From an uncultured Thermodesulfobacteriota bacterium (GTDB lineage: Bacteria > Desulfobacterota > Anaeroferrophillalia > Anaeroferrophillales > Anaeroferrophillaceae): a stretch of DNA of 64,000 nt. The stretch lies in contig CAYZIS010000009.1 in NCBI GenBank assembly GCA_964478545.1, forward strand, positions 2,070 through 66,069. The letters run 5' to 3'. The notes beneath the pieces are model-generated. The model was given only the letters and a program-made list of their open reading frames with translations, was not told the DNA's origin and made no database searches. Below are positions 925 to 64,000 of the stretch, piece by piece (positions within the stretch are counted from its first letter, which is position 1; every line of letters starts with the position of its first letter). Position numbers and translations under genes: made by a program.

Positions 925-1013
925 AGGGGGCAAGGGGAATCGAACCTCCTCCCGGTTTTGCAGACCGGACCAACGGGTTTGAAGCCCGCGGGGCGCCCAG
1001 CACCATTACCCCC
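925..1013 (-). tRNA. selC: tRNA-Sec (selenocysteine tRNA, anticodon UCA)
   Basis: Reverse complement reads GGGGGTAATGGTGCTGGGCGCCCCGCGGGCTTCAAACCCGTTGGTCCGGTCTGCAAAACCGGGAGGAGGTTCGATTCCCCTTGCCCCC. It has an 8-bp acceptor stem (GGGGGTAA/TTGCCCCC), an anticodon loop CUUCAAA with UCA, a long variable arm, a T-loop GGTTCGATTCC, and about 89 nt with no encoded CCA. Confidence 0.8.
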
Positions 1014-5874: not shown

Positions 5875-6807
5875 ATGAGCAGGAAAATTGCCGGTAATCT
5901 TGTCGATCTGGTAGGGAATACCCCACTGCTCCGGCTCCCTTCACTGTCCAGTGAGAGTAGAGCGAACATCATTGCCAAGCTGGAATATTTCAACCCCCTT
6001 TCCAGCGTCAAGGATCGAATTGCCATGGCTATGATCAACGCCGGGGAAAAGGCAGGAAAATTAAAACCGGGGGGGTTGATTGTTGAGCCAACCAGCGGCA
6101 ACACTGGTATAGGCCTGGCTTTTGTTGCCGCTGCCCGCGGTTACCGGCTGATTTTGACTATGCCGGATACCATGAGCGTGGAGCGGAGGAATCTGATGCG
6201 GTCTTTAGGGGCCAAGCTCGTCTTAACTCCGGGTAGCGTTGGTATGAAAGGGGCGATTGACCAGGCGGCAGAAATACAAGCTCAAAATCAGGGAAGTTTC
6301 ATGCCCCAGCAGTTCAATAATCCGGCCAACCCGGAAATACACCGGCAGACAACTGCGGTTGAAATATGGCACGATACCGACGGCAAAGTTGACGTGCTGG
6401 TTGCCGGGGTGGGCACTGGCGGCACCATCACCGGCTGCGGAGAATTTTTAAAAGGGAAAAAAGCGGGTATACAGATAATCGCCGTGGAACCGGCAGAATC
6501 CGCTGTCCTTTCCGGCCAGGCAGCTGCCCCCCATCGCATCCAGGGTATTGGCGCCGGATTTATTCCCGAAATACTAAACTTGGGGATCATTGATAAAATT
6601 ATTACAACTTCGTCGGATGAAGCCGGGGCCATGTGCCGACAACTGGCGGAAAAAGAAGGTCTTTTGGTCGGTATTTCCTCCGGGGCTGCAGCCGTTGCCG
6701 CCCTTAAAGTTGGACGGAAACCTGAAAACTTGGGGAAGGTAATTGTGGTTATTTTCCCTGACAGCGGCGAACGCTATCTGTCTACCTGGGCCTTTAATGA
6801 AACATAA
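5875..6807 (+). CDS. cysK: Cysteine synthase A (O-acetylserine sulfhydrylase). Probable ATG at 5875 with an RBS; the ORF track starts at a TTG at 5860.
   Basis: [15 protein letters not shown] (the PLP lysine), a GTGGT-type glycine loop, and about 310 aa. Confidence 0.9.
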
Positions 6808-6966
6808 GTTAAGCGATCAACTGTTAGCTGTCAGCATTTGGCTTTAAAAAATCAAGACATTATGTTCATGAGCAACAAAACCCAAAAGCTGACAGCTTGG
6901 AACAGGAAAAATGTTGTAATTATTGAACAAATAGTTAACGGCTAAAAGCTAATAGCTCAATTCAGG
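6808..6966. mobile_element. MITE-like element, family A copy 1 (about 159 bp, about 45-nt terminal inverted repeats)
   Basis: Left arm 6808-6842 is the reverse complement of the right arm 6930-6966 (GCTAA.AGCTAATAGC...ATCGCTTAA.TT.AGG). The same TIR pair is found at three other loci. Confidence 0.5.
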
Positions 6967-13629: not shown

Positions 13630-14223
13630 ATGAAGATAAAAATAAAAAAACTGGCGATGGTGCAGATGGGATATTCATTCCGATCCCGTCTTGAAGCCTC
13701 CAGTAGCGGTGGCGTCGCGGTTATCCAGATGAAAGACCTTCTTGATGACAACACGGTTGGCTGTGGTGACTTGGTAAAAATTGATATGGAGATGGTCAAA
13801 GAACATCACCTTGTGCAGAAGGGAGATTTGGTTTTCAGGTCGCGTGGACACGTAACTACGGCAGCGGTTCTTCTTGAGGAACCGGGGAAGGCGGTTGTTG
13901 CCGCTCCTCTATTAAGGATAAGGATTACCAAGCCGGACAGGGTTTTGCCCGAGTATCTGAACTGGTACATCAGCCAACGGGATGCGCAGATTTTCCTGAC
14001 CAGCAGAGCCAAAGGCACGGTCCAGAAGATGATCAGCAAACAGGCGATTGAGGAGCTTGAAGTTTCATTGCCAAGTTTGGAAAAACAGAAAAATATCGTT
14101 GAGCTGGCATCGCTTATCGCGAGAGAACAAAACCTGCTTCAGCAGATTTCCGAAAAGCGGGAGAAATACATCTCAACAGTACTCATGCAGTTTGCCAAAG
14201 GAACCACGAATGCACACCAATAA
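13630..14223 (+). CDS. hsdS: Type I RM specificity subunit, half-size HsdS (single target-recognition domain plus a conserved coiled region)
   Basis: LPSLEKQKNIVELASLIAREQNLLQQI is the HsdS conserved repeat. Length 197 aa. A -35/-10-like promoter (TTGACA at about 13562) lies upstream. Confidence 0.7.
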   Translation: MKIKIKKLAMVQMGYSFRSRLEASSSGGVAVIQMKDLLDDNTVGCGDLVKIDMEMVKEHHLVQKGDLVFRSRGHVTTAAVLLEEPGKAVVAAPLLRIRITKPDRVLPEYLNWYISQRDAQIFLTSRAKGTVQKMISKQAIEELEVSLPSLEKQKNIVELASLIAREQNLLQQISEKREKYISTVLMQFAKGTTNAHQ

Positions 14224-14592
14224 ACACGAATTATTACTGAAGGATGAAGTATACCAAGTCGTGGGTTGCACTATGGAGGTTTTGAATACGCTCGGTCACG
14301 GGCTACTGGAAAAGCCGTATGAAAATGCATTGGTGGTCGAGTTTGGGTAAGGGGAATCTCTTTCCAGCAGCAGAAACGATTTCCAGTGGTTTATAAATCA
14401 GTTCAGGTCGGGGAATATATTCCAGATTTGATCGCTTTTGATCAAATGGTGATTGACACCAAAGTCATCGAATCTATTGGCAATAATGAAAGAGCCCAAA
14501 TCATCAACTATCTCAAAATAACCGGTCTACGGGTCGGGCTCATCCTCAATTTTAAGCATGCAAAATTAGAGTGGGAACGTATCGTCCTATGA
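14210..14592 (+). pseudogene. GxxExxY protein (PD-(D/E)XK nuclease, PDDEXK_3 family) split by a 1-nt frameshift in a G-run near 14344-14349
   Basis: The N-terminal part reads EVYQVVGCTMEVLNTLGHGLLEKPYENALVVEF. It continues in another frame as VRGISFQQQKRFPVVYKSVQVGEYIPDLIAFD...AQIINYLKITGLRVGLILNF, matching the family end-to-end. Confidence 0.6.
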
Positions 14593-14648
14593 AGATTATT
14601 CGTGTAAATTCGTGTCCATTAGTGGTTTCAAAATAAGGAGAATAAAAC

Positions 14649-16277
14649 ATGAACAGCAAGATTGACCAGAGAGACATCAACAACGCGGCCTGGGCGGCGT
14701 GTGACACCTTCCGAGGGGTTGTTGATCCGGCCCAGTACAAAGACTACATCCTGGTGATGCTGTTTTTGAAATACATCTCCGATGTCTGGCAGGACCATTA
14801 CGATGAATATCAAAAGCAGCATGGCGATGATGATGTTCGTATCCGCCGCAAACTCGAGCGTGAACGCTTTGTTCTCCCAATAGTGAAACTGACGGAAAAA
14901 AATGATCAGACCGGTGAAGAAACGGTGCTAGATGAGTTCCCCGCCAACTACTACAGCCTTTACGAACGCAGATCAGCCGCCAATATCGGTGAGCTGATCA
15001 ACATCGTTCTCGACCATATTGAAGAAAACAACAAGACCAAACTTGAAGGGGTTTTCCGCAATATCGACTTTAACAGCGAGGCCAATCTTGGCAAGACCAA
15101 AGACCGTAACCGCCGCCTGAAACAGCTGCTGGAAGATTTCCATAAACCACAACTCAACATGAAGCCCAGCCTCGTCTCCGAGGATGTGATCGGCAACACT
15201 TATATCTATCTGATCGAACGTTTTGCTTCCGACTCCGGAAAGAAGGCCGGGGAGTTCTTTACCCCGCTGAAGGTTACCGAACTGGTCGCCAAGCTGGCCG
15301 GCCCTAAACCGGGCGACCGTATCTGCGACCCGGCCTGCGGCTCCGGCGGTCTGTTGATTCAGGCAGCCAAACAGGTGGGCGACCTGTCTGCGGGCAACAC
15401 ACAGGCAGGCCGTAACTTTGCCCTCTTCGGCCAAGAATCAAACGGCAGCACCTGGGCGCTCTGCCGCATGAATATGTTCCTCCACAGTTTTGACAGCGCC
15501 CGGATTGAGTGGTGCGATACGCTGAACAGCCCGCTCTTGGTTGAAAATGATCGCCTGATGAAATTCAACTGCGTGGTGGCCAATCCGCCATTTTCGCTGG
15601 ACAAATGGGGCGCTGAGAATGCTGAGAGCGATCAATACAACCGCTTCTGGCGCGGCGTTCCGCCAAAAAGCAAAGGCGACTGGGCCTTTATCAGTCACAT
15701 GGTGGAAATTGCACTGGAAAAAGAGGGTCGTGTGGTCGTGGTGGTTCCCCACGGGGTGCTGTTCCGAGGCGCTGCCGAGGGACGTATCCGGGAAAAGATG
15801 ATTGAAGAAAACCTGCTTGATGCGGTGATCGGCCTGCCGGGCAACCTGTTTCCGACCACCAATATTCCGGTGGCGATTCTGGTCTTTGACCGCTCAAGGG
15901 AAAAAGGCGGTGCCCGCGAAGCGTGCAAGAATGTTCTCTTTATTGATGCCAGTCGGGAGTTTGTCTCCGGTAAAAACCGGAATACCCTTTCTGAAGAACA
16001 TCTGGCCAAGATCATGGAAATCTACACGGCCAGAACCGAAGTGGAAAAATACGCCCATGTGGCTGACGTTGTAGAGATCAAGGAAAACGACTTCAACCTC
16101 AACATCCCCCGCTATGTGGACACCTTTGAAGAGGAAGAGGAAATCGACATCGATGCGGTTCAGCTGGAAATTGAGGCGCTGGAAAAAGAGCTGGCAGAAG
16201 TGCGGGTGAAAATGGCCGAAAAAATGCAGCAAATCCAGAGAAACCACGAATGCACACAAATAGACACGAATGTTTAG
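14649..16277 (+). CDS. hsdM: Type I RM DNA methyltransferase subunit (N6-adenine)
   Basis: VANPPF catalytic motif, a DPACGSGG AdoMet motif, an HsdM N-terminal domain, and 542 aa. The last 11 codons are supplied by repeat element R. Confidence 0.9.
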   Translation: MNSKIDQRDINNAAWAACDTFRGVVDPAQYKDYILVMLFLKYISDVWQDHYDEYQKQHGDDDVRIRRKLERERFVLPIVKLTEKNDQTGEETVLDEFPANYYSLYERRSAANIGELINIVLDHIEENNKTKLEGVFRNIDFNSEANLGKTKDRNRRLKQLLEDFHKPQLNMKPSLVSEDVIGNTYIYLIERFASDSGKKAGEFFTPLKVTELVAKLAGPKPGDRICDPACGSGGLLIQAAKQVGDLSAGNTQAGRNFALFGQESNGSTWALCRMNMFLHSFDSARIEWCDTLNSPLLVENDRLMKFNCVVANPPFSLDKWGAENAESDQYNRFWRGVPPKSKGDWAFISHMVEIALEKEGRVVVVVPHGVLFRGAAEGRIREKMIEENLLDAVIGLPGNLFPTTNIPVAILVFDRSREKGGAREACKNVLFIDASREFVSGKNRNTLSEEHLAKIMEIYTARTEVEKYAHVADVVEIKENDFNLNIPRYVDTFEEEEEIDIDAVQLEIEALEKELAEVRVKMAEKMQQIQRNHECTQIDTNV

Positions 16278-16305
16278 AACCACGGAAAGCTCAAGGAGAT
16301 TCAGC

Positions 16306-16900
16306 GATGAATAAAGACAAAGGCAAACTTTCCCTTCAAGATGAATTAGCCGAATTTCTGCTGTACACCACTCCAGATGGAGGAGTGAAGGTGGAGGTTT
16401 TCCTTTACGGCGAGACCGTCTGGCTACCGCAGAAACGTATTGCAGAGCTCTTTGGGGTTGGTGTGCCTGCCATTTCCAAGCACTTGGATAATATTTACGC
16501 AAGCGGTGAACTGGAAAAACCAGCAACTGTTTCCATTTTGGAAACAGTTCAGCTGGAAGGGAAACGTCAAGTGGCGCGATCTGACACCACTATCGGGAAA
16601 AACTATCTGTCAGAAACGGAAATCAAACAGTTGGAACGTACTGTATCCGCATTCTTTGACTACATTGAAAACATCGTTGAACGCCGCAATAGCTTTACCA
16701 TGAAAAGCTTTACAGCGAGCGTGAATAAGTTTTTGGAGTTCAATGAATATAAAATTCTGGAAGGTCACGGCTCTATTTCCCGCATGCAGGCGGAAGAGAA
16801 GGCTTTCGGCGAATACGAAAGGTTCAACAAGACACAGCTTATAGATTCTGATTTTGACAGGATGGTGAAGGAGTTGTCTACGGAGGGGAACCACGAATGA
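16306..16900 (+). CDS. RhuM-family N-terminal-domain paralogue (short). The track ORF starts at 16250, inside the repeat.
   Basis: YTTPDGGVKVEVFLYGETVWLPQKRIAELFGVGVPAISKHLDNIYASGEL parallels the RhuM N-terminus of the 21515 gene. The conserved leader AAGGAGATTCAGCGATG precedes it. Confidence 0.5.
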
Positions 16901-17039
16901 GCATGAATAGACACGAATAATTAGAACCACGGACGACACGGAAAAACACTGAATTGAAAGCGTTTGATTTTCCGTGCCTTCCGTGCCTTCCGTGCTTTCC
17001 GTGGTTAAAGATGGCCGATAAGCTCAAGGAGATTCAGCG

Positions 17040-17933
17040 ATGATAAATATTGATATTGAAAAACATCACCATCAGACATTTGAGAAAATCAAGCAGACGG
17101 CACAGAATGGTTCTGAGTTCTGGATGGCGCGCCGACTAGCCAAGCTCCTCGACTACGCTGAGTTTCGCAATTTTCTGCCGGTCATCGAAAAGGCGAAAAA
17201 AGCCTGTGAAAATAGTGGTCAGTCCGTGAAAAACCATTTCGTGGAAATGCACGAGATGGTTTCAATTGGTTCCGGAGCTGAGCGAAAAATGAAATCCTAC
17301 GGGCTCTCCCGTTATGCCTGTTACTTGATTGTACAAAATGGCGACCCATCCAAGCCGGTCATCGCCAACGGTCAGACCTATTTCGCCATGCAGACCCGAA
17401 GGCAGGAATTAGCCGATGACCAGGCTTTTCAGCGCCTCAAGGAGGATGAAAAGCGCCTTTTTCTGCGCAACGAAATGCGGGAGCACAACAAACAGCTGGT
17501 GGAAGCTGCTCAACAGGCTGGTGTTGAATCCAATCTCGACTTTGCCATATTCCAGAACCATGGCTACAAAGGACTGTACGGTGGGCTGGACGCCAAGGGG
17601 ATTCATAAACATAAAGGATTGAAAAAGAGCCAACAAATTCTCGACAACATGGGTAGCACCGAACTTGCCGCCAACCTTTTTCGCGCTACGCAAACCGAAG
17701 AAAAACTGCGCCGGGAAAATATTCAGGGCAAGACCAAGGCTAACAAAACCCATTTTGAAGTCGGTAAAAAAGTCCGCCAAACCATCGAAGAACTTGGTGG
17801 AACCATGCCGGAAAATCTCCCGACACCGGACGAAGACCTAAAGAAACTGAAAAGACGGGTGAAGTCGGCAGGGAAAAAGCTGATCAAAGGGTGTGAACTG
17901 CCGGAAAGAGGAACCACGAATGCACACGAATAG
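17040..17933 (+). CDS. dinD: DNA-damage-inducible protein D (DinD) family protein
   Basis: The N-terminus HHQTFEKIKQTAQNGSEFWMARRLAKLLDYAEFRNFLPVIEKAKKACENSG closely matches the DinD family. Such genes are frequently embedded in Type I RM loci. Confidence 0.6.
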   Translation: MINIDIEKHHHQTFEKIKQTAQNGSEFWMARRLAKLLDYAEFRNFLPVIEKAKKACENSGQSVKNHFVEMHEMVSIGSGAERKMKSYGLSRYACYLIVQNGDPSKPVIANGQTYFAMQTRRQELADDQAFQRLKEDEKRLFLRNEMREHNKQLVEAAQQAGVESNLDFAIFQNHGYKGLYGGLDAKGIHKHKGLKKSQQILDNMGSTELAANLFRATQTEEKLRRENIQGKTKANKTHFEVGKKVRQTIEELGGTMPENLPTPDEDLKKLKRRVKSAGKKLIKGCELPERGTTNAHE

Positions 17934-18053
17934 ACACGAATGCTTAGAACCACGGACGACACGGAAAAACACGGAATTGAGAACGTTTAATCTTCCGTGC
18001 CTTCCGTGCTTTCCGTGGTTAAAAATAGCCGAGAAACTCAATGAGATTCAGCG

Positions 18054-19250
18054 ATGAACAAAAAAGATGCTCTCCCAAAAGGATGGAAAAACATAAAGCT
18101 TAAAAAGCTTGTTACTCAGGAAATCAAGAATGGCTATTCACCCAACTGTCCTGAAGAACCAAACGGGAGTTGGATTCTGGGCTTAGGAAATTTAACCGAA
18201 AACGGGTTTGATCCATCCCAGGCAAAACCAGCTCCCAAAGGTGATAGCAGAGTAAAAGACTTTTTACTTGAACCTGGTGATTTTTTAATTAGTCGATCTA
18301 ACACGTTAGACAAGGTTGGAAGGACAATGTTGTTCAGAGGTGAAATTGAAAACTGCTCTTATCCAGATTTACTCATGAGATTTCGTGTAGATGAAACTTA
18401 GGTTACAAATGAATTTTTGGAGGGGTATTTAAGGAGCTCAGTAGTCAGGAAATACATCCAAGGCTGCGCCTCTGGTACAAGCAACAGCATGGTGAAGATC
18501 AATAAAACAATTGTCGAAAAAATACCTATTGTTTTGCCTCCCCATCCAGAGCAAAAAGCCATTGCCGATTTGCTGTCCACCTGGGATGAGGCCATCGAGA
18601 AAACCGAACGGCTGATTCTGGCGCAGGAGAAGCGGTTTAAACAACTGCTGCGGGAGTTGTTAAGAGAAAAAGTCGAGCTGGGGAAAATTGAATTAGGGAA
18701 GGTTTGTAAGATAACAAAAGGAAAACAGTTAAATATAGCTCATATGAATCGTGATGGTTATTATTATGCCTTAAATGGCGGGATTAAACCATCTGGAAGA
18801 ACTGATGATTGGAACACCAAAGCAGGAACCATAACTATCAGTGAAGGTGGAAACTCATGCGGATATGTAAACTTCAATACACAAAGATTCTGGTCTGGTG
18901 GGCATTGTTATTCACTTCTTAATCTAAAAAAATCTGTAGACTCACACTACCTGTTCTTTTATCTAAAAATGAACGAGCCCAAACTTATGAACTTACGGGT
19001 TGGATCTGGACTCCCCAACATACAAAAGAAAGACGTTGATCGGTTTAAAATATCGATCCCACCGCTCGCAGAACAGCATCAAATAGCCGAGACATTATCC
19101 GCCGCCCAACAGGAAATCAACCTGCTGAAACAGCTTGCAGAAAGATACAAAACCCAGAAACGCGGTCTGAGGCAGAAGATGCTCACGGGCGAATGGCGGG
19201 TAAAACCTGAAATCATTACCCAATATGCGGAAGAGGTGCCATGCAAATAA
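18054..19250 (+). pseudogene. hsdS: Type I RM specificity subunit (two TRDs) interrupted by an in-frame TAG at 18399-18401. Both halves are in the same frame.
   Basis: TRD1 (18054-18398), then TAG, then VTNEF-LEGYLRS..., central conserved region, TRD2, and the C-terminal conserved ISIPPLAEQHQIAETLSAAQQEINLLKQLAERYK. Confidence 0.65.
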
Positions 19251-22555: not shown

Positions 22556-25500
22556 CTTTCAGATAAACGAAAAGCATCTTTCTCAACTTCCGGCGGTGCA
22601 ACTGCTGATATCACTGAGCTATGAATATATTTCTCCGGTTGAAGCGCTCCGTGAACGACAGGGAAGAGTTGCCAATGTCTTGCTGGAAAACATTCTCCGC
22701 AATCAGCTCAAAGAAATCAACCGCATTCGCTACAAAGGAAATGAATATCTGTTTAGCGAGGAAAATGTTCAGTCCGCCATCCAGAAGCTGAAAAACATTA
22801 AATATGACGGTTTGCTGAAAACCAATGAAGCAATTTATGATCTGATCACCCTGGGAACGGCCATGGAGCAGACCATCGAGGGTGATTCTAAAAGTTATAA
22901 TTTGAACTATGTTGACTGGCACAATCCCGGCCGCAACAGATTTCACGTGACGGTTGAATACAGTGTTGAGCGGTCCCGGAGCACCGAGACCACCCGGCCG
23001 GATATTGTCCTCTTTGTTAACGGCATTCCTTTTTGCGTGATTGAATGCAAAGCCCCACAGATTGAAGTTGAACAGGCAGTCTCCCAATCCATTAGAAATC
23101 AGAACGACGACTATATTCCGAAGTTATTCATCTATACCCAGTTGGTTCTGGCATTCAATAAGAACAGCGCGATGTTCGCAACCACCGGAACTGCAGCAAA
23201 GTTCTGGTCCATCTGGAAGGAACCACGAATGGACACAAATAAACACGAATACAATAAATTGAAGAAACTGGTAGATGAGTCTGTTCGTGTTGAAATTGAA
23301 CCCAAATCCTTTGAGATTCACTCAGAGCAAAATATTAGTGAAGATTCGTGTTCATTCGTGGTTTCGAAAGAGCGTTTGGTGACGGAGCAAGACAAAGCCC
23401 TTTTTGCTCTCTGCCGCCCGGAACGCCTGCTGGAACTGGCTTGGAAGTTCATTGTTTTTGATGGCGGCATTAAAAAGATTGCCCGCTATCAACAGTATTT
23501 TGTCATCAAGTCCACTCTGAACCGGATCAAGCATTTTGACCGTAACGGTTCCCGCAAGGGCGGTGTTATCTGGCACACGCAGGGGTCAGGGAAATCCCTG
23601 ACCATGGTGATGCTGGCCCGGAATCTGGCCTTGGATCCGGAGATATTGAATCCTCGCATTGTTCTGGTCACCGACCGGGATGATTTGGACAAGCAGCTGG
23701 GTAATACTTTTGCCGCCTGCGGACTGGAAGCCAATCGGGCAACATCGGGAAGAAATCTGCTGGAGTTGGTAGCTGAAAAAAACTCCGGCATTATCACCAC
23801 GCTCATTCATAAATTCGACAAGGCTTACGCGGTAAGAAAATACCAGGATAAATCCCCCGACATTTTCATTCTTGTGGATGAAAGCCACCGTACCCAGTTC
23901 GGCTCGTTTTCCGCCCGTATGCGCCAGATGTTTCCCCATGCCTGCTATCTGGGATTTACAGGTACTCCGTTGCTGAAAAAAGAGAAAAACAACTTCACCA
24001 GGTTCGGAGAACTAGTGGAGCCGCATTACTCCATTTCACAGGCGGTAGAAGACGGCGCGGTCGTTCCACTCTTGTATGAAGGACGGCATGTGGAGATGAC
24101 CCAGAACAAGGCTGCTGTGGACCTCTGGTTCGAGCGTCATACCCAAGGCTTGAGCAAAGAACAGCAGGCGGACCTGAAACGTAAATATGCTCGGGCGGAA
24201 ATGCTGAACAAGGCTTATCAGGTCATTTACATGAGGGCCTTTGATATCAGTGAACACTTTCGGGCTAATTGGCAGGACACCGGGTTCAAGGCACAACTGG
24301 TCGCGCCAAATAAGGCTTCGGCGCTTAAATACCATGCGTATTTGAATGACATCGGCATGGTCAGTTCGGAAGTTGTTATTTCCCCTCCGGATATGCGTGA
24401 AGGCTATGAAAAGACGGACGATGAAACGACTGATGACGTGGTAAGGTTCTGGCAGAAAATGGTGAAACGCTATGGCAGCAAGGAGGAGTATACCAAGCAG
24501 CTCATCAACCAGTTTAAACACGGGAGCGATCCCGAAATCCTTATTGTCGTCGATAAGCTCTTAACCGGCTTTGACGCGCCAAGAAACGCGGTACTTTATT
24601 TATGCAGGGTTCTCAGGGAACATTCGTTGCTTCAGGCTATCGCGCGGGTTAACCGGATCCATGAAGGCAAGGAGTTCGGTTTTATCGTCGATTATGCAAA
24701 TGTTCTTGGTGAGCTGGATAAAGCGCTGACCATGTATAGCGCGTTTGAGGGTTTCGACGAATCGGATCTTGTCGGTACTCTTACTTCCATCAACAGCGAA
24801 ATTGAAAAACTGCCGGGGCGCTATTCGGATTTATGGGATTTCTTTAAGTCGGTAAAGCATTCTTATGATGAAGAGGCATACGAGGTTTTGCTTGCTGATG
24901 ATGAATTAAGGGAAGAGTTTTATAGTCGTCTTTCTGAATTTGGTAAAAACCTCGGTATCGCTCTTTCTTCTGAAAAGTTTTTGTCTGAGACAGATGAAAA
25001 AACTCTGTCCAGATACAAGGCTGATCTCCGGAAATTCCAATCGCTTAAGGCATCTGTCAAGTTGCGCTATGCTGAAGCTATTGATTACCGGGATTATGAG
25101 CCGAAAATCAAGAAGCTGCTGGATACCCATATTCAAGCCAATGAGGTTATCCAGCTCAACGAGCCGGTTAACATCTTCGATGACAAAATGTTCAATCAGG
25201 TAAAAGAGGAGCAAGGAGTTTATCAAACCAGGAAAACCACGGCCTCCAAAGCCGATATGATTGCTCACGCAACGAAAAAAGTGATTACGGAAAAAATGTT
25301 CGAAGACCCTGCTTTTTACGAAAAATTTTCAAAGCTGATCCAGCGGGCTATTGAAGATTTCAGAGCAAAAAGAATATCGGATCTGGATTATCTCAATAAA
25401 GTCGTTGAGGTCAGGAATAAAGTCGTCGGCAAGGTTCATGATGATGTTCCTGATAAACTTTCCGGCAATGAAGATGCCATGGCCTATTATGGGATACTGA

Positions 25501-38839: not shown

Positions 38840-38887
38840 GGTCTCCCCGATAACTGGGTGTGAAAAATAAGCAGGGGGTTTGGGCGG

Positions 38888-39030
38888 GATGCCCGCAACC
38901 CAAAAGAAATTTTCTGAGGATGTTCCGGCATGGCTCTTGCTCATTCTTGCCGGCTGTCCATGGCCTGCCTGTCGGCAGACACGGCTGCGAGCCAAGCCCG
39001 AACATCCTGAAATGTATTCCCGGCAATACC
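38888..39030. repeat. Palindromic repeat element, family B copy 1 (about 145 nt)
   Basis: CGCAACCCAAAAGAAATTT..GGATGTTCCGGCATGGCTCT.GCTCATTCT.GCCGG...GAGCCAAGCCCGAACATCCTGAAATG.ATT.CCGGCAAT. Shared with 50115-50169 and 51968-52133. Confidence 0.6.
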
Positions 39031-39050
39031 AGGAAGAAAATTGAAGCAGC

Positions 39051-39296
39051 TTATAAGCCGGCTGCTGCCAACATTTTATCAATTTCCTGGGGATTGAAGC
39101 CAACCCGGTGATCTTCACCAATGACAACCACGGGAACTTGACGTTTGCCGGAAATATCAACCATTTCCTTTAGGGCTCGAGGATTTTCACGCACATCAAA
39201 CACTTCATAATCGACCTCTTTTTGCGAAAGATACTCTTTCGCTGTCTGGCAATGGGGTCAGGTGGAGAGGGAATAAATTTTTACGGTTACAGCCAT
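39051..39296 (-). CDS. Glutaredoxin/NrdH-like selenoprotein with an in-frame UGA (Sec) at the UxxC redox site
   Basis: [84 protein letters not shown] is at 39258-39260, exactly where the first Cys of CxxC sits. A stem-loop lies 14 nt downstream. Confidence 0.65.
39225..39243 (-). promoter_or_regulatory. Candidate bacterial SECIS hairpin for the Grx-like selenoprotein
   Basis: GCGAAAGA-GUA-UCUUUCGC is an 8-bp stem with a G-containing apical loop, 14 nt downstream of the UGA. Confidence 0.4.
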
Positions 39297-39321
39297 AGCA
39301 ACACCTCACAGATTTTCAAGG

Positions 39322-43095: not shown

Positions 43096-43944
43096 ATGGA
43101 TTTTTGTCACCATGAGGCTGATGTCCTGGAAGAAATCAGCCGCCTGCAGGAAGGAATTACCGAACTTCAGGACCATCATTGCTACCAGGCGAATAGTGCT
43201 GGAGCGTTGATTCCCGGCTGCGCTATCTGCACCAGCATGGCCCACCTGACCCTGCAAATGGGATTTCGCTGCAATGCAAGCTGTCCTTTTTGTTTTCTGG
43301 ATACTTACCAGGAAGCTGAATCCCACCCTTTGGAATACAGCCATCGCCAAATGGTGCTCCAAGATTTCCAGGCCCGCCGGCAGGAAATTGAAGGAATAGC
43401 TATTTCCGGCGGCGAACCGCTGCTTTACCTTGATGAACTGGAAACATGCGTCAAACGTATACGACAGATCAAGCCGGATATTTACCTGTGGCTCTATACC
43501 AACGGCATCCTGGCTGACAAAAATAATTTGGCCCGGGTCCAGTCACTGGGGGTCAATGAAATCCGTTTCGACCTGGCGGCAAGCAATTATGGCAGTCGCA
43601 TCATAGAGCATGTCAGCCTGGCCAGACCTCTCTTTCCATTCCTGGCGGTGGAAGTTCCTTCCTACCCGGTACAAAAAGAACTTTTACTGGCGGTCCTGGA
43701 TGAATTGGACCGTATCGGCATTGACCAGCTGAACCTCCAGGAGCTGCTGCTGACCCCGAAAAGCATGAAAAAAGTGCAGGGTGAGGGTTATGAAGCCGGG
43801 TTTCTCTGTTTCCAGAAATATTTTCTGTACGGCAGCTGGAAAATGACGTATAAAATTATGTGTTATTGCCTTGATCATCGATATTCATTTACTGTCAATC
43901 AGCAGTATCCGGTATGTTTTTTGCGTTGTCTGCAATGTTGTTAA
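43096..43944 (+). CDS. Radical SAM protein (activating-enzyme-like)
   Basis: CNASCPFC (CxxxCxxC) and a Gly-rich SAM motif ISGGEPLL. Confidence 0.6.
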   Translation: MDFCHHEADVLEEISRLQEGITELQDHHCYQANSAGALIPGCAICTSMAHLTLQMGFRCNASCPFCFLDTYQEAESHPLEYSHRQMVLQDFQARRQEIEGIAISGGEPLLYLDELETCVKRIRQIKPDIYLWLYTNGILADKNNLARVQSLGVNEIRFDLAASNYGSRIIEHVSLARPLFPFLAVEVPSYPVQKELLLAVLDELDRIGIDQLNLQELLLTPKSMKKVQGEGYEAGFLCFQKYFLYGSWKMTYKIMCYCLDHRYSFTVNQQYPVCFLRCLQCC

Positions 43945-44068
43945 TTAGTGCTGTTTCAGTGCGACATCGTGAGATGCCGTTGCTTTTCCCGGCGAATAGA
44001 GCGTAAAAATTGACCTGTTTGAGCCCTGGAAGGGCGAGTTTGGCAATTTTGGCGCCATGAACCGTTGG

Positions 44069-44141
44069 AAATGCAGGCAAACGAGCGCCAAAAAGCGCTG
44101 AGATCAGCTCCGGTTAACTGCTGCAAGAACCTAACCGGACA
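44069..44141. repeat. Repeat family C copy 1 (about 70 nt)
   Basis: AAATGCAGGCAAACGAGCGCCAAAAAGCGCTGAGATCAGCTCCGGTTAACTGCTGCAAGAACCTAACCGGACA. Near-identical copies at 46533-46606 and 54272-54329. Confidence 0.6.
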
Positions 44142-44188
44142 CCTTTGACTATCAATGACTGTTCAGCTCGAATGTTTGGGGAAAAACC

Positions 44189-46390: not shown

Positions 46391-46653
46391 CCTTGAGGGA
46401 CAAAGCCATCAACTTTACTTAAAACCCGGAATAGTGTATTGATACTGGTCTTTAAAAACTCAACTTTCTGAGTTGTTTTAAAAAACAGCCCAGCCTGTCG
46501 CCGTGCCTGCCGGCAAGCTGGACGGTGGGCTGAAAAAGCAGGCAATTGAGCGCCAAAAAGCGCTGAAATCAGCTCCGGTTGACAGTATGCAACTTTCTAA
46601 CCGGGCACTGCTGAGAAATTTGAGTTTTAAAAAATAACATCCGGGAAAACATC

Positions 46654-47852: not shown

Positions 47853-48214
47853 GAAGTGAGCACTTAGCCGTTAGCTTTTAGCCTTTAACTTCGTAAAATA
47901 AGTCTCTTACGTTAATTTCAAAGTAAATATTCGGTATTGTTTTCAAACTACCGGGATTGAGGTCATTTCTTGACGAAGGCGTATCGTGATATTTTCTTTT
48001 ATTGGTGATTTTCAATAGCCTTTGTCAAGATGTGACCCCTCGCGAAGCGGGGCGAAGCGAACCAACTTAATTACCCGCTGTGAGATAGTGTTTTATTACG
48101 TAGCCGAATAGTTACATTTCAAACAACACCTGATGGCTGAAGATTTGTTATGACAAACTTCCTGTAATCATAAACTAATAGCTAACCGCTAATAGCCAAT
48201 CGCTTAAATTCAGG
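47853..48214. mobile_element. MITE-like element, family A copy 2 (about 360 bp, same TIRs)
   Basis: The right TIR 48164-48214 (GTAATCATAAACTAATAGCTAACCGCTAATAGCCAATCGCTTAAATTCAGG) pairs with an inverted left arm at 47853-47895. Confidence 0.45.
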
Positions 48215-50114: not shown

Positions 50115-50169
50115 CGCAACCCAAAAAAAACTTTCCGGGATGTTCCGGCATGGCTCTCGCTCATTCTAA
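50115..50169. repeat. Family B repeat, partial copy 2 (left arm only)
   Basis: GCAACCCAAAAAAAACTTTCCGGGATGTTCCGGCATGGCTCTCGCTCATTCT. Confidence 0.5.
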
Positions 50170-50190: not shown

Positions 50191-50601
50191 TTGATGTACG
50201 AAATATACCCAATGAAAAACAGCAGACAAACCGTCGATTATGTCCTCCTGAATGCCTTTATGGACAGCCTGAAGGATCCCTTTTTATTTGTTGATACGAA
50301 TCATATCATCCGCTACATGAACAAAACCGCCCGCAGCCATTTCAAGGACGGAGTTGATCTTTTGAACCGCTCGCTGTTGGATTGCCATAATGAACATTCC
50401 TGCCGGATTATCAGGAAAAATCTGGAAGCATTTAAAAATGGTGAGGATGAACGGCTGATTCACAACAGCGAAAAAAAGAGACTTTTCATGCGGGCAGTAC
50501 GCGATGAAGAAGGTCAACTGATAGGCTACTATGAGCGCTATGAGCCACCCCGACCAGGCATAAGGTTGGGGCCGCTTTCGGCAGCAAAAACCGAAGATTA
50601 A
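50191..50601 (+). CDS. PAS-domain protein (stand-alone sensor)
   Basis: PAS core (FLFVDTNHIIRYMNKTA...), 136 aa, and no output domain. Confidence 0.5.
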   Translation: MMYEIYPMKNSRQTVDYVLLNAFMDSLKDPFLFVDTNHIIRYMNKTARSHFKDGVDLLNRSLLDCHNEHSCRIIRKNLEAFKNGEDERLIHNSEKKRLFMRAVRDEEGQLIGYYERYEPPRPGIRLGPLSAAKTED

Positions 50602-50673
50602 AATACAGATATATGTTATTAATAAAGGTAAATAGTCCTTGATATTTTCCTTAAAATAAGACATATTGTAAAC

Positions 50674-51951
50674 ATGAAACAGATCCTAAAAACAATTATC
50701 AAAGATTTCCATTCAAGGCCGCTACCCGCATTCAAGCTTCGGCAATTGGAGGTACCTCTTGATCTGAACAAGATTATCACAATCATTGGTCCCCGCAGGG
50801 CTGGGAAAACGTGGTATTTTTTTCAACTAATGGCAAGATTGGAAAAACTTGGTATAAAAAGGGAGCAATTCCTGTATCTCAATTTTGAGGATGAACGCAT
50901 TGAGTTGGAAGCTAATTATGACCAAATTCTCGACGCATATCTTGAGCTATACCCAGATCAGGAGCTGAGTGAACTTTACATTTTTTTTGATGAAATACAG
51001 GAGCTGCCAGCTTGGGAAAAATATGTCCGCCGCCTGTATGACACCGTAAGCAGAAAAATCTTTCTCACTGGCTCAAATGCGAAGATGCTCTCAAAAGAAA
51101 TTGCGACCTCATTACGAGGCCGCAGTCTCTCATTTGAAATAATGCCACTATCGTTTACTGAATTTCTCTTCTTCCAAAATATTGATCCGGAAGACCATTT
51201 TTCCAGCAGAAATAGGGCGAAAATTCAACGTAGTTTTGATGAATATCTGCTCTGGGGAGGGTATCCAGAGCTGGTTGATATTGAAACTCGTTTTAAGGCG
51301 GATATTCTACAAGAATATTTTAATGTAATGCTCTACCGGGACTTAATAGACCGATATGATATCCGTGATGCTTCACTGCTGAAATATTTGATTAAACGCC
51401 TGATTGCATCATTTACTAAGGAGTTTTCAGTCAATAAGTTGTATAATGATTTGAAGTCCAGAGGAATCAGAATTGGTAAGGACACCATTTATCGACTGAT
51501 TGACCAGATATTCTCTATCTACATGGTAACGTGTGTGGAAAAATATGACCCGGAAGTGGTAAAAAGGGAGATGAGCAATCGGAAAATTTATCTCTACGAC
51601 AATGGTCTTGCCTCAGCTACCCATTATTCTTTTTTTGAAGACCGAGGCAAACTACTTGAAAACCTGATTTTTACTAAATTACGTGCAACATCCGAAGATA
51701 TTTATTTCTTAAAAAATGGTTATGAGTGTGATTTTGTAGCTTTTCCACGGGTTGAAGAACCTATTCTTATCCAAGCTACGGGAATATTGCATCAGGATAA
51801 TGTAGATCGGGAGATAAAGGGTCTGGAAAAGGCACGCAAAAGGATTGAAAATGCACGGGGATTGCTCATAGCCGGCAATATAACCGCTCCCTTTGATATA
51901 CTACCAAAATGGATTGAGCTTAAAACGGCCATCGATTGGTTACTGGAATAA
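50674..51951 (+). CDS. AAA-family ATPase with DUF4143 C-terminal domain
   Basis: GPRRAGKT (Walker A) and FFDEIQ (Walker B). Length 425 aa. Confidence 0.65.
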   Translation: MKQILKTIIKDFHSRPLPAFKLRQLEVPLDLNKIITIIGPRRAGKTWYFFQLMARLEKLGIKREQFLYLNFEDERIELEANYDQILDAYLELYPDQELSELYIFFDEIQELPAWEKYVRRLYDTVSRKIFLTGSNAKMLSKEIATSLRGRSLSFEIMPLSFTEFLFFQNIDPEDHFSSRNRAKIQRSFDEYLLWGGYPELVDIETRFKADILQEYFNVMLYRDLIDRYDIRDASLLKYLIKRLIASFTKEFSVNKLYNDLKSRGIRIGKDTIYRLIDQIFSIYMVTCVEKYDPEVVKREMSNRKIYLYDNGLASATHYSFFEDRGKLLENLIFTKLRATSEDIYFLKNGYECDFVAFPRVEEPILIQATGILHQDNVDREIKGLEKARKRIENARGLLIAGNITAPFDILPKWIELKTAIDWLLE

Positions 51952-51967
51952 CTGACGCGGACTGAAT

Positions 51968-52133
51968 GCCCGCAACCCAAAAGAAATTTACCAGGATGTT
52001 CCGGCATGGCTCTCGCTCATTCTCGCCGGCCGTTCGCCGCTAATCACCATCTTGATGATTAGTTCGGCGGCCAAACCCACTGAGAGCCAAGCCCGAACAT
52101 CCTGAAATGCATTTCCGGCAATGCTGGGTAAAA
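51968..52133. repeat. Palindromic repeat element, family B copy 3 (about 165 nt)
   Basis: The conserved arms are as in copy 1. The central variable segment is itself self-complementary (CCGCCGCTAATCA...TGATTAGTTCGGCGG). Confidence 0.6.
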
Positions 52134-52181
52134 ATCAGCAGCAAAAACTGAAGACAGCCTGAAGATTAACCGGAGGTTGGA

Positions 52182-54210: not shown

Positions 54211-54520
54211 TTGTTTCGCTCATTATCTGTAGAATTATTGCTTATCCATCTTTCAGATCAATATTCGACTAGTTGCCAAAAGCGCTGAAATCAGCTCCGG
54301 TTGACAGTATGCAACTTTCTAACCGGACAGTACTGAAGTACTATTCGAAAAAACAAACGTTTATTTGTATTCTGGTTTACCCAATTGTTTTTTCTCACGG
54401 AGGTACAGAGACACAGAGCTGCGGAAAGGAAGTTTGCATTTCTCTGTGTCTTAGTGTCTCTGTGAGCGTTATTTTATTTTCATTGTTAACCAAATAGTTA
54501 CTATTTCAGAAAGGAATGCC

Positions 54521-56635: not shown

Positions 56636-56792
56636 ACCCAAGTTGAGCGGTTAGCTATTAGCAGTTAGCTTTGAGAAAATAAAGCATTAGATTCGTGAGA
56701 AATAACATCCAATGGGTAACAGTTTGTCTTGGTAAACACCCTGTCATCATTAAACTAAGAGCTAATGGCTAAAAGCTCATCGCTTCATTTAG
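56636..56792. mobile_element. MITE-like element, family A copy 3 (about 157 bp)
   Basis: Left arm 56636-56675 is the inverse of the right arm 56745-56792. Confidence 0.5.
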
Positions 56793-60715: not shown

Positions 60716-60882
60716 CAAGCGTAAATTAAGCTATTAGCTTTTAGCAGTTAGCTATTAGTTTAATGATTACAAAATGTTTAGCATGACAAACTTTCACCCG
60801 TTGGGTGTTATTTTCCATAAACGTAAGCCCCTGATTTTCAAAGCTAAACGCTAATGGCTAACGGTTCATCGCTTAACTTGCG
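60716..60882. mobile_element. MITE-like element, family A copy 4 (about 167 bp), between the MCP stop and the cheW start
   Basis: Left arm 60716-60765 is the inverse of the right arm 60830-60882. Confidence 0.5.
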
Positions 60883-62994
60883 TCAAACCGTAAACTGCCT
60901 CATAAGTTCCTTCAATTTTTCTGCCAGCTGGCTCAATTCCTCAGCACTCTGGCGCACCTGGGCACTGGAATTGCTCATCTCACTGGCCGATTCATTGACA
61001 TCGGCAATATCCCGGGCGATGGTCCCTGACACCTCGGTGGTCTGGGACAAATTCTCATTCACTTCAGTAATCCCCTGGGAAGTCTGGGCAATATTTTCGG
61101 CAATCTCCTGGGTAGTGGAGGCCTGCTGTTCCACCGCCGTAGCAATAGTCGAAACAATACCGTCAACTTCATCGTTAATCCGGGAAATTTCCTTGATTTC
61201 GGTTACTGTGTCCCCGGTTGAATCCTGGATTCCCTTAATCTTGGCGGCAATCTCGCCGGTAGCTGACGCCGTCTGCTGGGCCAGGTCTTTGATCTCGTTG
61301 GCCACCACCGCAAAACCTTTGCCAGCCTCGCCGGCCCGGGCCGCCTCAATGGTGGCATTAAGGGCAAGGAGGTTGGTTTGGGAGGAGATGTCGTTGATGG
61401 TTTCCGTCACTTTACCGATTTCCTGGGCCGCCTTCCCCAGTTCATCAATTCTTTCAGTAGCGCTCTGGCCCTGAGCCACCGCCTGGTTAGTAATTTCCTT
61501 GGCGGTTTCGGCATTTTTGGCAATCTCACCGATGGTGGCACTCATCTCCTCACTACCGGAGACCACTGTATTGACGTTGACCGCTGCCTGCTCCATGGCC
61601 GCCGCCACCGAACTCATATTAGCATTCATCTTTTCAGTAGCGGTAGCCACATTATTGGCCTTGCCGGCAGTATTGTCCGCCCCGGTCGCCAACTGGCCGG
61701 AAATAGCATTCAACTCGGTGGAGGAGGAAGCCGTAGTTTCCACCCCATCCATGATATCACGAATCATGCTTTTCAAAGCCTGCCCCATCTTATTGAGGGC
61801 TGTAATCAAAGCACCGATCTCATCCCGCTGCTTAACAACCAATTCGGTGGTAAAATCCCCGGTGGCCATGGTTTCGGCAAACTTAACTCCCCGATTTAAG
61901 GGTCCGACAATCCCCCGGGTAATGAAGATCCCCAGGACCAGAGCCAGGGCCACGCCCCCGGCAACCATCATGGCCACCAGCCAGAGGGCCGAGCTGGCGG
62001 TTTTTTTACTGCCGGCCACCGCCGTCTGCATCTCTTGAGCAAACGTCGATACCACGGTGTCCAGTGAGTTATCCATGGTTTTTACCGTTTCCAAGAAACC
62101 CTGGAGATCGAGATACTGTTCGGTCTTGAGCGAATCATATTCTTCCTCGACGTATTCCTGCAACTCGTTGAAGCTGTTCGTTAAAGCCTCAATCCGGGTT
62201 TCGGTGACCATGGTCAGCATCATTTTGCGCTGATCCACCGGCACGGCCATAACCGTCTTACCCATCTCGTACAAATTGCCATTAGCTTCTTTACAGGCAG
62301 TCAACAACTCCATCAGCTCTTCTTCATCGCTCTGATAATCAGCCAGCCAGCGGCTAAACTCACTCTCTTCCGGTTCAATCAAACCGGAAAAATCGGCTTG
62401 ATAAGACTGAACCGTTTTCTGCAGAGCAGCCAACCACTGGCTGTTGACATCCTTCACATGATAGATAAAAGCCGGCAGGGTGTAATGGACATCATCAAGA
62501 ACAAAACTAAACGCTCTCAATATCTCGCATAAAGGCACAATCGCTTCTGCCTGTTTATTCACTTTCTGCAGCCCCTGGCGCAAGGAGGCCACCTGTTTCT
62601 GCACCGCAGGGCCGGCCTTCTGCACCACGATGTCCATCTTATCATGGACATACATCTTGCCGACGGCACTGTTTTTAAATTTTTGGCTTTCAGTACCAAA
62701 TTCAAACATGGAAAGCCATATGTTGAAATTTTCCAGCCATTTGGCAATATCCACTTCTATCTGCTTCAAACTGTCATCAGCTCCCAGCAGTTCGTGCATA
62801 CTCTGAATCACCTGGCCCAGCGTAATTTTTGCTTCCATGGCGACGTCTTTGGATGGCACCTTTTCTTCAACCACCATCTGGCTGTTCCTGGACACCTTTT
62901 TAACCATAAATACCCCGGTTACCCCAACAATGGTCACCAGGACGGCCATGAGCAAAAAAGCTCCCAACAATTTTTTAGCAATAGTTAATTTCAT
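60883..62994 (-). CDS. mcp: Methyl-accepting chemotaxis protein (N-terminal TM, roughly 300-aa periplasmic sensor, HAMP, MA signalling domain)
   Basis: Conserved MCP hairpin tip ([38 protein letters not shown]). Length 703 aa. Confidence 0.85.
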   Translation of the reverse strand: MKLTIAKKLLGAFLLMAVLVTIVGVTGVFMVKKVSRNSQMVVEEKVPSKDVAMEAKITLGQVIQSMHELLGADDSLKQIEVDIAKWLENFNIWLSMFEFGTESQKFKNSAVGKMYVHDKMDIVVQKAGPAVQKQVASLRQGLQKVNKQAEAIVPLCEILRAFSFVLDDVHYTLPAFIYHVKDVNSQWLAALQKTVQSYQADFSGLIEPEESEFSRWLADYQSDEEELMELLTACKEANGNLYEMGKTVMAVPVDQRKMMLTMVTETRIEALTNSFNELQEYVEEEYDSLKTEQYLDLQGFLETVKTMDNSLDTVVSTFAQEMQTAVAGSKKTASSALWLVAMMVAGGVALALVLGIFITRGIVGPLNRGVKFAETMATGDFTTELVVKQRDEIGALITALNKMGQALKSMIRDIMDGVETTASSSTELNAISGQLATGADNTAGKANNVATATEKMNANMSSVAAAMEQAAVNVNTVVSGSEEMSATIGEIAKNAETAKEITNQAVAQGQSATERIDELGKAAQEIGKVTETINDISSQTNLLALNATIEAARAGEAGKGFAVVANEIKDLAQQTASATGEIAAKIKGIQDSTGDTVTEIKEISRINDEVDGIVSTIATAVEQQASTTQEIAENIAQTSQGITEVNENLSQTTEVSGTIARDIADVNESASEMSNSSAQVRQSAEELSQLAEKLKELMRQFTV

Positions 62995-63091: not shown

Positions 63092-64000
63092 TCAAAGTTT
63101 AAACCGGTTCATCAACCCATTCAATTCCGCCGACAGCTGCTTTAAGCCTTCGGCGCTTTGGCGCACCTGGGCGCTGGCATTGCTCATGGACCCAGCCGCC
63201 TCATTCACTTCGGCAATTTCCTGGGCTATGGTTCCGGAAACCTCTGTGGTCTGGGCCACATTTTCATTCACCTCCCCAATCCCCCCGGAAGTCTGGGCAA
63301 TATTTTCGGCAATCTCTTTAGTCGTGGCTGATTGTTCTTCCACAGCGGCAGAAATGATGGCTACAATTTCATCCACTTCCTTGTTGATCCGGGCAATCTC
63401 ATTGATCTCGGTCACCGTAGCATCAGTGGAATCCTGGATTCCCTTGATTTTGGCAGCAATCTCACCGGTGGCCGATGCCGTCTGTTGGGCTAGATCTTTA
63501 ATCTCGTTGGCTACCACCGCAAAACCTTTCCCCGCCTCACCGGCCCGAGCCGCCTCGATGGTGGCATTGAGAGCCAAAAGATTGGTCTGGGAAGAAATGG
63601 CGTTGATGGTTTCGGTCACCTGGCCGATTTCCTGGGCCGCATGGCCTAATTCATCAATACGGCTGGCCGCTGTTTCACCCTGAGCCACCGCCTGATCGGT
63701 GATGTTTTTGGCCTGTCCGGTATTCTTGGCAATCTCGGCAATAGTGGCCGTCATCTCTTCAGTACCGGAAGCAACGGTAGTAACATTGGTCGATGCCTGT
63801 TCCATGGCTGCGGCCACCGTACTCATGTTGCTGTTCATTTCTTCGGCAGCGGTGGCTACCCCGGTAGCCTTGGTCGCCATCTGATCCGCTCCGGCTGCCT
63901 GCTGCCCGGCGAGAGAATCAAGACTGTCGGCCTCCCGAGACAGGTTTTCAAAGCCCTTGACCATGCGCCGCAGCATTTTCTGCAGATTTTCAATAAAGGC
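63092..64000 (-). CDS. mcp: Methyl-accepting chemotaxis protein, C-terminal part (the gene continues beyond the window end)
   Basis: Near-identical signalling domain to the upstream MCP. The ORF is open at 64000. Confidence 0.8.

Follow-up and report, generated by a model that had tools for sequence, protein, structure and literature searches.

The window analysed here, a 64-kb stretch of the genome of an uncultured Thermodesulfobacteriota bacterium, contains three related palindromic sequences, all given on the plus strand. The first of them (copy 1; 38895-39033, 139 nt), whose limits are set by empty-site alignments with the loci L223, L225 and L231 of relatives, lies, as a first-pass annotation had it, between a selenoprotein gene and yyaL. 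The selenoprotein gene is of the glutaredoxin family (grx; 39051-39299, minus strand) and has an in-frame TGA in its redox motif T-U-P-H-C, which is kept in L223, L224, L225 and L231; a tRNA-Sec gene is found at 926-1013 (minus strand; 52 bits against a gathering threshold of 47). Copy 2 (50116-50167, 52 nt) is truncated at its 3' end. Copy 3 (51972-52134, 163 nt) follows an AAA_14/DUF4143 ATPase gene (50674-51951), and its right limit is given by the duplicated 3' end of a PAS gene, which begins at 52135. Three copies, one of them a half, had been called at the outset; all are present, with limits refined to the above.

These sequences belong to a family, here termed family B, for which a core consensus was derived from 35 aligned full copies (30 of these make up alignment A2). 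The full core is about 129 nt long and consists of a long stem, P1, with two hairpins, HP1 and HP2, inside it, in the following order: the P1 5' arm, the junction J1 (TCGCTCATTCTC), HP1, a linker TCCGAG, HP2, the AATRCCGCTAT junction and the P1 3' arm. P1 is a 19-bp stem with two fixed mismatches, C.C in 30/30 copies and A.A in 29/30. HP1 occurs in three forms (GCCGGCC/GGCCGGC, GCGGCAC/GTGCCGC and GCTGCAC/GTGCAGC), and HP2, which contains a TT bulge, has about 16 bp. A third hairpin, module X, is optional; it stands before the P1 3' arm in some copies and in the left flank in others, and has a long form (CCTGCCTGTCGCCGTGCCTGCCGGCAGGCTGGGCAGACACGG) and a short form (CCTGCCTGTCGGCAGACACGG). The mutual complementarity of the arms that had been noted earlier is borne out in the window, where GGATGTTCCGGCATGGCTC and GAGCCAAGCCCGAACATCC pair at 17/19 positions, the two conserved mismatches being symmetric, C.C and A.A.

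Mapped onto this scheme, copy 1 runs from a left end GCAACCCAAAAGAAATTTTCTGA through the P1 5' arm (38918-38936), J1, half of HP1 and a short module X TGCCTGTCGGCAGACACGG to the P1 3' arm (38989-39007) and a right end TGAAATGTATTCCCGGCAATACCAGG. In copy 2 the left end is followed by the P1 5' arm and J1; its last letters are exactly ...CTCATTCT, i.e. the end of J1 or first junction. Copy 3 has the left end, both P1 arms (51994-52012 and 52084-52102), J1 and HP2 (approximately 52028-52070), HP1 being deleted and the right end being a degenerate terminal repeat. The centre had earlier been described as variable and palindromic: the centres indeed differ and each is self-complementary, but the cause is the loss and exchange of modules. 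Copy 3 lost HP1 via a deletion of about 20 nt and kept HP2, while copy 1 kept half of HP1, lost HP2 and has the short form of X, so that each of the two centres represents its own selection of the hairpin modules found in a longer consensus, and there is no freely varying region. The arrangement of copy 1 recurs in a metagenome contig (L148) at an unrelated locus and is therefore a propagated variant; copies with internal deletions are common across the family.

The left-arm 20-mer GGATGTTCCGGCATGGCTCT has three exact plus-strand matches in the window (0.00 expected from shuffles) and two minus-strand matches with 2-3 mismatches, which are the right arms, and a right 26-mer has two exact matches (0.00 expected). 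Folding energies are -60.2 kcal/mol for copy 3 (z = -7.0) and -50.4 kcal/mol for copy 1 (z = -2.8), and the half copy shows no fold (z = +1.0). When a covariance model of 30 members of the family is run over the window with its filters off, it scores copy 3 at 122.8, copy 1 at 86.4 and copy 2 at 26.5 bits, and recovers no fourth copy in the 64 kb.

Covarying stems had been predicted, and they are seen between subfamilies. Across the alignment, 92.7% of cells pair under the proposed structure, as against 87.2% in shuffles, and 11 pairs show changes on both sides, amounting to 64 cells versus 20.9 ± 2.9 in shuffles and 0-8 in slid controls, a count inflated by shared ancestry within subfamilies. 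Pair 46-61, for example, occurs as CG, GC and UA, and pair 75-111 as CG, GC and AU; RNAalifold independently arrives at the same three helices. The best-conserved segment is J1, with a majority fraction of 0.994 and 10 of its 12 columns invariant, compared with 0.96 for the arms, 0.80 for HP1 and 0.65 for the flanks. Single departures from pairing are G.U in 23 cases and A.C in 24; this favours neither strand and gives the private mutations a neutral look. Compensation is thus seen between subfamilies while single insertions decay, a pattern to be expected if what the fold serves is the spread of the element and not the host at individual loci. As single-stranded DNA, a whole B-type element folds into one branched hairpin (z = -7.5). 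An alternative helix between J1 (GCTCAT) and ATGAGC was rejected, being broken in L016c and L099b, where P1 is compensated. An ORF of 24 codons is readable in one subfamily and is broken in the others by 1-nt indels; with such differences between subfamilies, no frame is conserved.

One genome per species was scanned for GGATGTTCNGGCNTGGCTC, all counts being lower bounds, which gave at least 44 elements in "Proteobacteria bacterium HyVt-111" and at least 32 in "bacterium GMC6.concoct.48_sub". HyVt-111 is a relative of the window organism, as its orthologous genes are about 78% identical to those of the window in DNA. Among the matches listed, single copies are found on contigs labelled Desulfobulbaceae (AUK272), Desulfobacterales (GMC4.077) and Pseudomonadota (MAG240), and a few short contigs with copies are binned elsewhere. 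About half of the elements lie at contig ends, as expected of a repeat that breaks assemblies. Further copies occur in contigs of the Antarctic-lake type (Ga0307990 and Ga0307991). The pattern used for metagenomes, GCAACCCAAAARAAAYTT, was too A-rich, and most of its 118 loci are chance matches, those in L117, L136 and L148 being real; L117 additionally has 270 nt in common with window positions 43899-44165 at 87% identity. BLAST against annotated plasmids and phages gave no match, and the core is absent from IMG/VR, where eight matches of a terminal-repeat 17-mer were dismissed as chance, lacking an inverted partner. Full-text searches of the literature returned none of three signature sequences and no Desulfobulbaceae MITEs. 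The family is new, of a known kind of element, the bacterial MITE-like repeat.

The first-pass annotation named as possible refutations a lack of additional copies genome-wide, against which this census speaks, and an origin of the copies as remnants of a single duplicated gene fragment. The latter may be widened to a local segmental duplication, the copies then constituting no repeat family. Copies 2 and 3 are indeed just 1.8 kb apart. However, more than 80 copies lie at unrelated loci over several genomes, no reading frame is conserved across the 1-nt indels, and the flanks of the copies are unrelated; the census refutes this explanation.

The family falls into subfamilies that differ in the sequences framing the core, i.e. 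their shells. Subfamilies B and C have the core between terminal inverted repeats of 16-20 nt (CTCAACTTTCTGAGTTGC ... GCAAsTCAGAAAGTTGAG), the whole element measuring 194-255 nt, with one internally deleted copy of 91 nt. These elements are flanked by AT-rich direct repeats of 6-7 bp, e.g. TATAAAA, CTGATAA, TTTTTAA and TATTGA; the flanking 7-mers of 13 elements with paired terminal repeats agree at 55/91 positions, against 36.4 ± 4.4 when re-paired (p = 0.0002). With terminal inverted repeats and target duplications, subfamilies B and C are therefore read as MITEs. The most numerous subfamily, A, has no terminal inverted repeats: it starts with CTAA or CCAA, followed by the perfect small palindrome GGCGGGCTTAACGCCCGC and then AACCCAAA, and ends in a module Z that closes with the hairpin GCCTT..AAGGC and ACTAA. 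Hence, at least part of the family must move by another route. The A shell also occurs with a different cargo (L021 and L078), and both the terminal-repeat shell and the A shell are found without the core. One such core-less related element lies in the window itself (46459-46630, plus strand); it has the left terminal repeat CTCAACTTTCTGAGTTG, as in B and C, and a module X, is joined to another repeat family, and carries TTTAAAAA on both sides.

The window copies combine the two shells. Their left ends are of the A type (a GC hairpin, then GCAACCCAAAAGAAATTT) and the left terminal repeat is absent; at the right, copy 3 has a degenerate terminal repeat of the B type and copy 1 is cut short. The sequence past the copies had been taken for a degenerate right repeat, which proved partly wrong, the sequence being native after 39033 and after 52134. 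A hairpin of the form GCGGG-loop-CCCGC occupies the left-end position in every copy of the A or window type. At copy 3 a small hairpin GCGGACTGAATGCCCGC (51957-51973, plus strand), 5 nt past the AAA_14 stop codon, adjoins and overlaps the left end, and at copy 1 the GC-rich half-hairpin GGGCGGGATGCCC (38882-38894, plus strand) adjoins it. The latter is native and lies outside the insertion, as it stands at the same distance to the yyaL start in the element-free L223, L225 and L231.

Comparison of orthologous loci gives the history of these insertions. The homologues of YyaL are 94, 82, 78, 78 and 69% identical and are all found in a ferritin-rubredoxin-glutaredoxin(Sec)-yyaL context. In L223 (94%), L225 and L231 (78%) copy 1 is absent and the spacer of about 100 nt contains no element: on the yyaL side homology extends up to ...GGGCG(A/G)GATGCCC, and on the grx side it starts again at AAGAA..., with L223 having 25 unrelated nt in place of window positions 38895-39033. 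The alignment with the empty site thus makes the hairpin half to the left of copy 1 native and leaves no target duplication, the junctions showing microhomology only. Copy 1 looks like a replacement at microhomologies and not like a clean transposition. In the three element-free loci (L225:1030-1075, L231:1428-1462 and L223:2425-2460, orthologous to 38882-39035), the glutaredoxin gene is followed by a native 12-bp hairpin, GGGGCGGGATGTTC-TGAC-GGACATCCCGCCC, whose stem has GGATGTTC/GxACATCC (also given as GGATGTTC/GAACATCC) in common with the base of P1; this likeness may be a coincidence, a target preference or a relic.

Copy 2 is absent from the orthologous spacer of L229, and its right edge adjoins sequence common to L227 and L228. 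Copy 3 is absent in L227, L228 and L229. In L227 and L229 the stop codon of the PAS gene is separated from the start of the Dabb gene by 12-15 nt, a spacing to which the window adds 1557 nt. This insertion (50598-52154, plus strand; absent from L227, L228 and L229) consists of the low-GC AAA_14/DUF4143 gene followed by copy 3, with a 20-nt direct repeat of the PAS 3' end on either side (50578-50597 and 52135-52154). The GC content of the ATPase gene is 0.36-0.43, versus 0.50-0.58 nearby, and its homologues (75-82% identity) are found on many contigs only about 1.5-1.8 kb long, with a promoter-like 5' flank of about 55 nt in common and nothing past the stop codon. Copy 3 is thus no part of the unit to which that gene belongs. 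The insertion and the distribution of these homologues suggest a small mobile gene cassette. As all three copies are missing from the orthologous loci of relatives (94-78% protein identity), they are insertions, and the comparison shows that they reached their present sites after the split from the close relatives. The converse case is also found: in HyVt-111 (L032) a gene is followed at 20 nt by a family-B element, while its orthologue in the window, which ends at 6807, has a different repeat behind it. Between the two MAGs (L048 versus L051 and L082 versus L086), the spacers are too diverged for the junctions to be defined.

The repeat at that window site (6806-6963) belongs to a second palindromic family, rich in TTAGC/GCTAA and with inverted ends mostly about 155 nt apart, which further occurs at 47853-48210, 56640-56790 and 60723-60879. 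The TTAGC/GCTAA motif also flanks several family-B copies in MAGs.

The conservation of the core raises the question of whether it is kept as an RNA. Under such a reading, which includes the structured small RNA proposed in the first-pass annotation, the core would be a functional structured RNA (a cis-regulatory or stabilising element, a small RNA or the guide RNA of a mobile element) that is spread by transposons and kept for its activity. The covariation of three helices, the near-invariance of J1, the fixed mismatches in P1 and the presence of the core in two unrelated shells would all suit this, as would a T-rich run that follows P1 on the minus strand and is terminator-like in copy 1, between grx and yyaL. 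Yet at the gathering threshold Rfam finds only the tRNA-Sec in the window, and at E <= 1 the loci of six full copies give only a chance match to NsiR9 (23.8 bits versus a threshold of 90). The orientation of the elements relative to transcription is random, with approximately 9 sense, 8 antisense, 9 divergent and 3 convergent cases where both neighbours were called, on crude ORF calls. There is no excess of G.U over A.C and no promoter-like site within the copies. Copies without HP1, HP2 or half of the element persist, so that large internal deletions are tolerated, and close relatives have no element at these loci. The T-rich run is the sole terminator-like feature, is suitably oriented in copy 1 only, and was rejected as evidence of a terminator role given its restriction to the minus strand and the random orientation. 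Overall, mobile DNA is better supported than a host small RNA, and a functional structured RNA is, in our assessment, distinctly improbable.

We therefore come to the reading, to which we assign a probability of roughly 0.65, that the three window sequences are copies of a non-coding, non-autonomous, modular and hairpin-rich family of mobile DNA that is MITE-like in character. The first-pass annotation had suggested a hairpin-forming MITE/REP-like element, and dozens of dispersed intergenic copies, the terminal repeats and duplications of B and C, and empty sites for all three window copies agree with it. Dozens of copies occur in related uncultured genomes of sulfate-reducer-like organisms, and the same sites are empty in close relatives of the window organism. 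As a mechanism, a DDE-type transposase would move subfamilies B and C in trans, while the hairpin ends of subfamily A, bounded by CTAA, resemble those of REP or IS200/IS605-derived elements. The window copies are derivatives with an A-type left end, a degenerate B-type right end and deleted or exchanged hairpins, and are likely decaying, probably immobile insertions. The fold, kept in propagating lineages but not in single insertions, most likely serves mobilisation, as folded single-stranded DNA or a protein-binding cruciform, and not the host. Several points speak against this reading: the left terminal repeat is missing from the window copies, no target duplication accompanies copy 1, and A-type elements are without terminal inverted repeats. 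Furthermore, a near-invariant J1 and fixed mismatches in P1 would also be expected of a functional RNA.

Bacterial MITEs include Correia/NEMIS in Neisseria, ERIC/IRU in enterobacteria, RUP in Streptococcus pneumoniae and Nezha in cyanobacteria. Like these, the members of family B are short (90-255 nt, below the limit of about 600 bp), have no ORF, are intergenic, dispersed and present in dozens of copies per genome, and show presence/absence polymorphism at orthologous sites; the terminal inverted repeats and short AT-rich target duplications of B and C, the folding of the whole element into a long hairpin and the internal-deletion derivatives add to the likeness. They differ in other respects: a search of about 0.6 Mb, mostly short MAG contigs, gave no parent IS that shares their termini; terminal repeats and duplications are missing from the commonest subfamily (A) and from the window copies; and the conserved part is an internal three-helix core, present in two shells, and not the termini. 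In the same 0.6 Mb, pairs of terminal repeats at distances of 0.5-4 kb all proved to be neighbouring MITEs, with no transposase between them, and no protein family recurs beside the core except as orthologue pairs. An IS3-family element (L071:1100-2092, reverse strand; OrfA MSNKRKQYSPEFKAKVALAAIKNEETIAELARRF...) directly adjoins a family-B copy in the MAG GMC6; it was considered as a partner and rejected as an unrelated insertion.

Integron attC sites, in which R''/R' boxes (RYYYAAC ... GTTRRRY) surround an imperfect hairpin with extrahelical bases, were likewise considered and rejected. On inspection of the window copies, no GTTRRRY is present on the right and the CCGCAAC on the left does not fit RYYYAAC; moreover, the flanking genes are housekeeping genes and not cassettes.

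The properties of subfamily A invite comparison with elements moved by HUH/Y1 enzymes. REPs are palindromes of 20-50 nt that follow a conserved tetranucleotide, usually GTAG, and have a conserved bulge needed for cleavage (PMC8266576); in REPINs compensatory changes are common (PMC3116915); and PATEs have been named as non-autonomous derivatives of IS200/IS605 (PMC3119063, PMC7290912). Family B resembles the REP/BIME/REPIN elements (mobilised by RAYT, i.e. TnpAREP) in being built of extragenic palindromes and mosaic modules, with conserved mismatches within a stem and compensatory changes, and in subfamily A a conserved tetranucleotide precedes a perfect small palindrome. The family-B core is, however, larger, is no simple doublet of inverted REPs, and in some subfamilies is accompanied by terminal repeats and target duplications; no GTAG stands beside P1 or the terminal hairpin, subfamily A having CTAA or CCAA. 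The PATE likeness of subfamily A lies in the absence of terminal inverted repeats, a subterminal hairpin at each end and CTAA at the left flank and right terminus (CTAA|hairpin ... hairpin-ACTAA|). Unlike PATEs, the family has no known TnpA or TnpB partner, and the window copies do not follow CTAA, copy 1 following the native ...GATGCCC.

These likenesses could mean that the whole family moves as single-stranded DNA through a putative HUH/Y1 enzyme, either a RAYT that has REP/REPIN-like hairpins as its substrate or an IS200/IS605 TnpA that mobilises a PATE-like element. Such an enzyme would recognise the folded hairpins and the flanking tetranucleotide, and the subfamilies with terminal repeats would represent secondary captures of the same cargo. 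The lack of terminal inverted repeats and target duplications in subfamily A and the window copies fits this proposal, as do the CTAA-GGCGGGCTTAACGCCCGC start and hairpin-ACTAA end of the former, the occurrence of the A shell with a different cargo, the compensated stems and fixed long-stem mismatches, which parallel those of REPs and REPINs, and the GC hairpin that adjoins the left end of every A-type or window copy. Against it, no Y1 or RAYT gene was seen in the partial genomes covered, the conserved tetranucleotide is CTAA or CCAA and not GTAG, the left flank of copy 1 is native GCCC and not CTAA, and the clear terminal repeats and 6-7-bp duplications of B and C are not made by HUH enzymes. 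We consider movement of the family in this manner unlikely, and retain the MITE-like family with more than one route of movement as the preferred reading.

A more speculative proposal concerns the core itself, namely that selection acts on the 129 nt themselves as a functional folded nucleic acid, which might serve as an RNA or single-stranded-DNA recognition or guide module for a hairpin-targeting recombinase. It builds on the covarying helices, the invariant junction and the two fixed mismatches of the closing stem. It would explain the two unrelated shells, the landing of the element always against GC-rich hairpins, and the presence of GGATGTTC/GAACATCC in both the target hairpin of copy 1 and the base of P1. 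We hold this to be very unlikely. Only if it were true would the family rise above the ordinary; otherwise, this is a fairly ordinary bacterial "junk" element of modest interest. As a MITE-like family, it illustrates neatly how one folded core is shuffled between a shell with terminal repeats and a shell with hairpin ends, and the combination of compensatory change between subfamilies with neutral decay of individual copies points to selection on the element and not on the host. On the practical side, the family breaks metagenome assemblies of this Desulfobulbaceae-like lineage, as seen in the many copies at contig ends; its insertion polymorphisms can be used as strain markers, and masking it is advisable before calling regulatory motifs or small RNAs in these genomes.

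The window contains several other repeats. A family with the sequence GAGCGCCAAAAAGCGCTGAAATCAGCTCCGGTTGACAGTATGCAACTTTCTAACCGG is found upstream of genes at 44066-44118, 46531-46614 and 54253-54336, and units of AACCACGAATGCACAC..ACACGAAT and CTTCCGTG (14197-18068 and 23216-23265) precede short genes with near-identical starts (families D3, D4, D9 and D12). The segments 60883-61709 and 63092-63918 are 71-74% identical at a distance of 2209 nt and are probably tandem paralogous genes. Another palindromic repeat, CACGGAGG.ACAGAG.CACA.AG ... CTCTGTG..., is present at 54390-54470 and also at L230:1-80, upstream of yyaL in an 86% relative.
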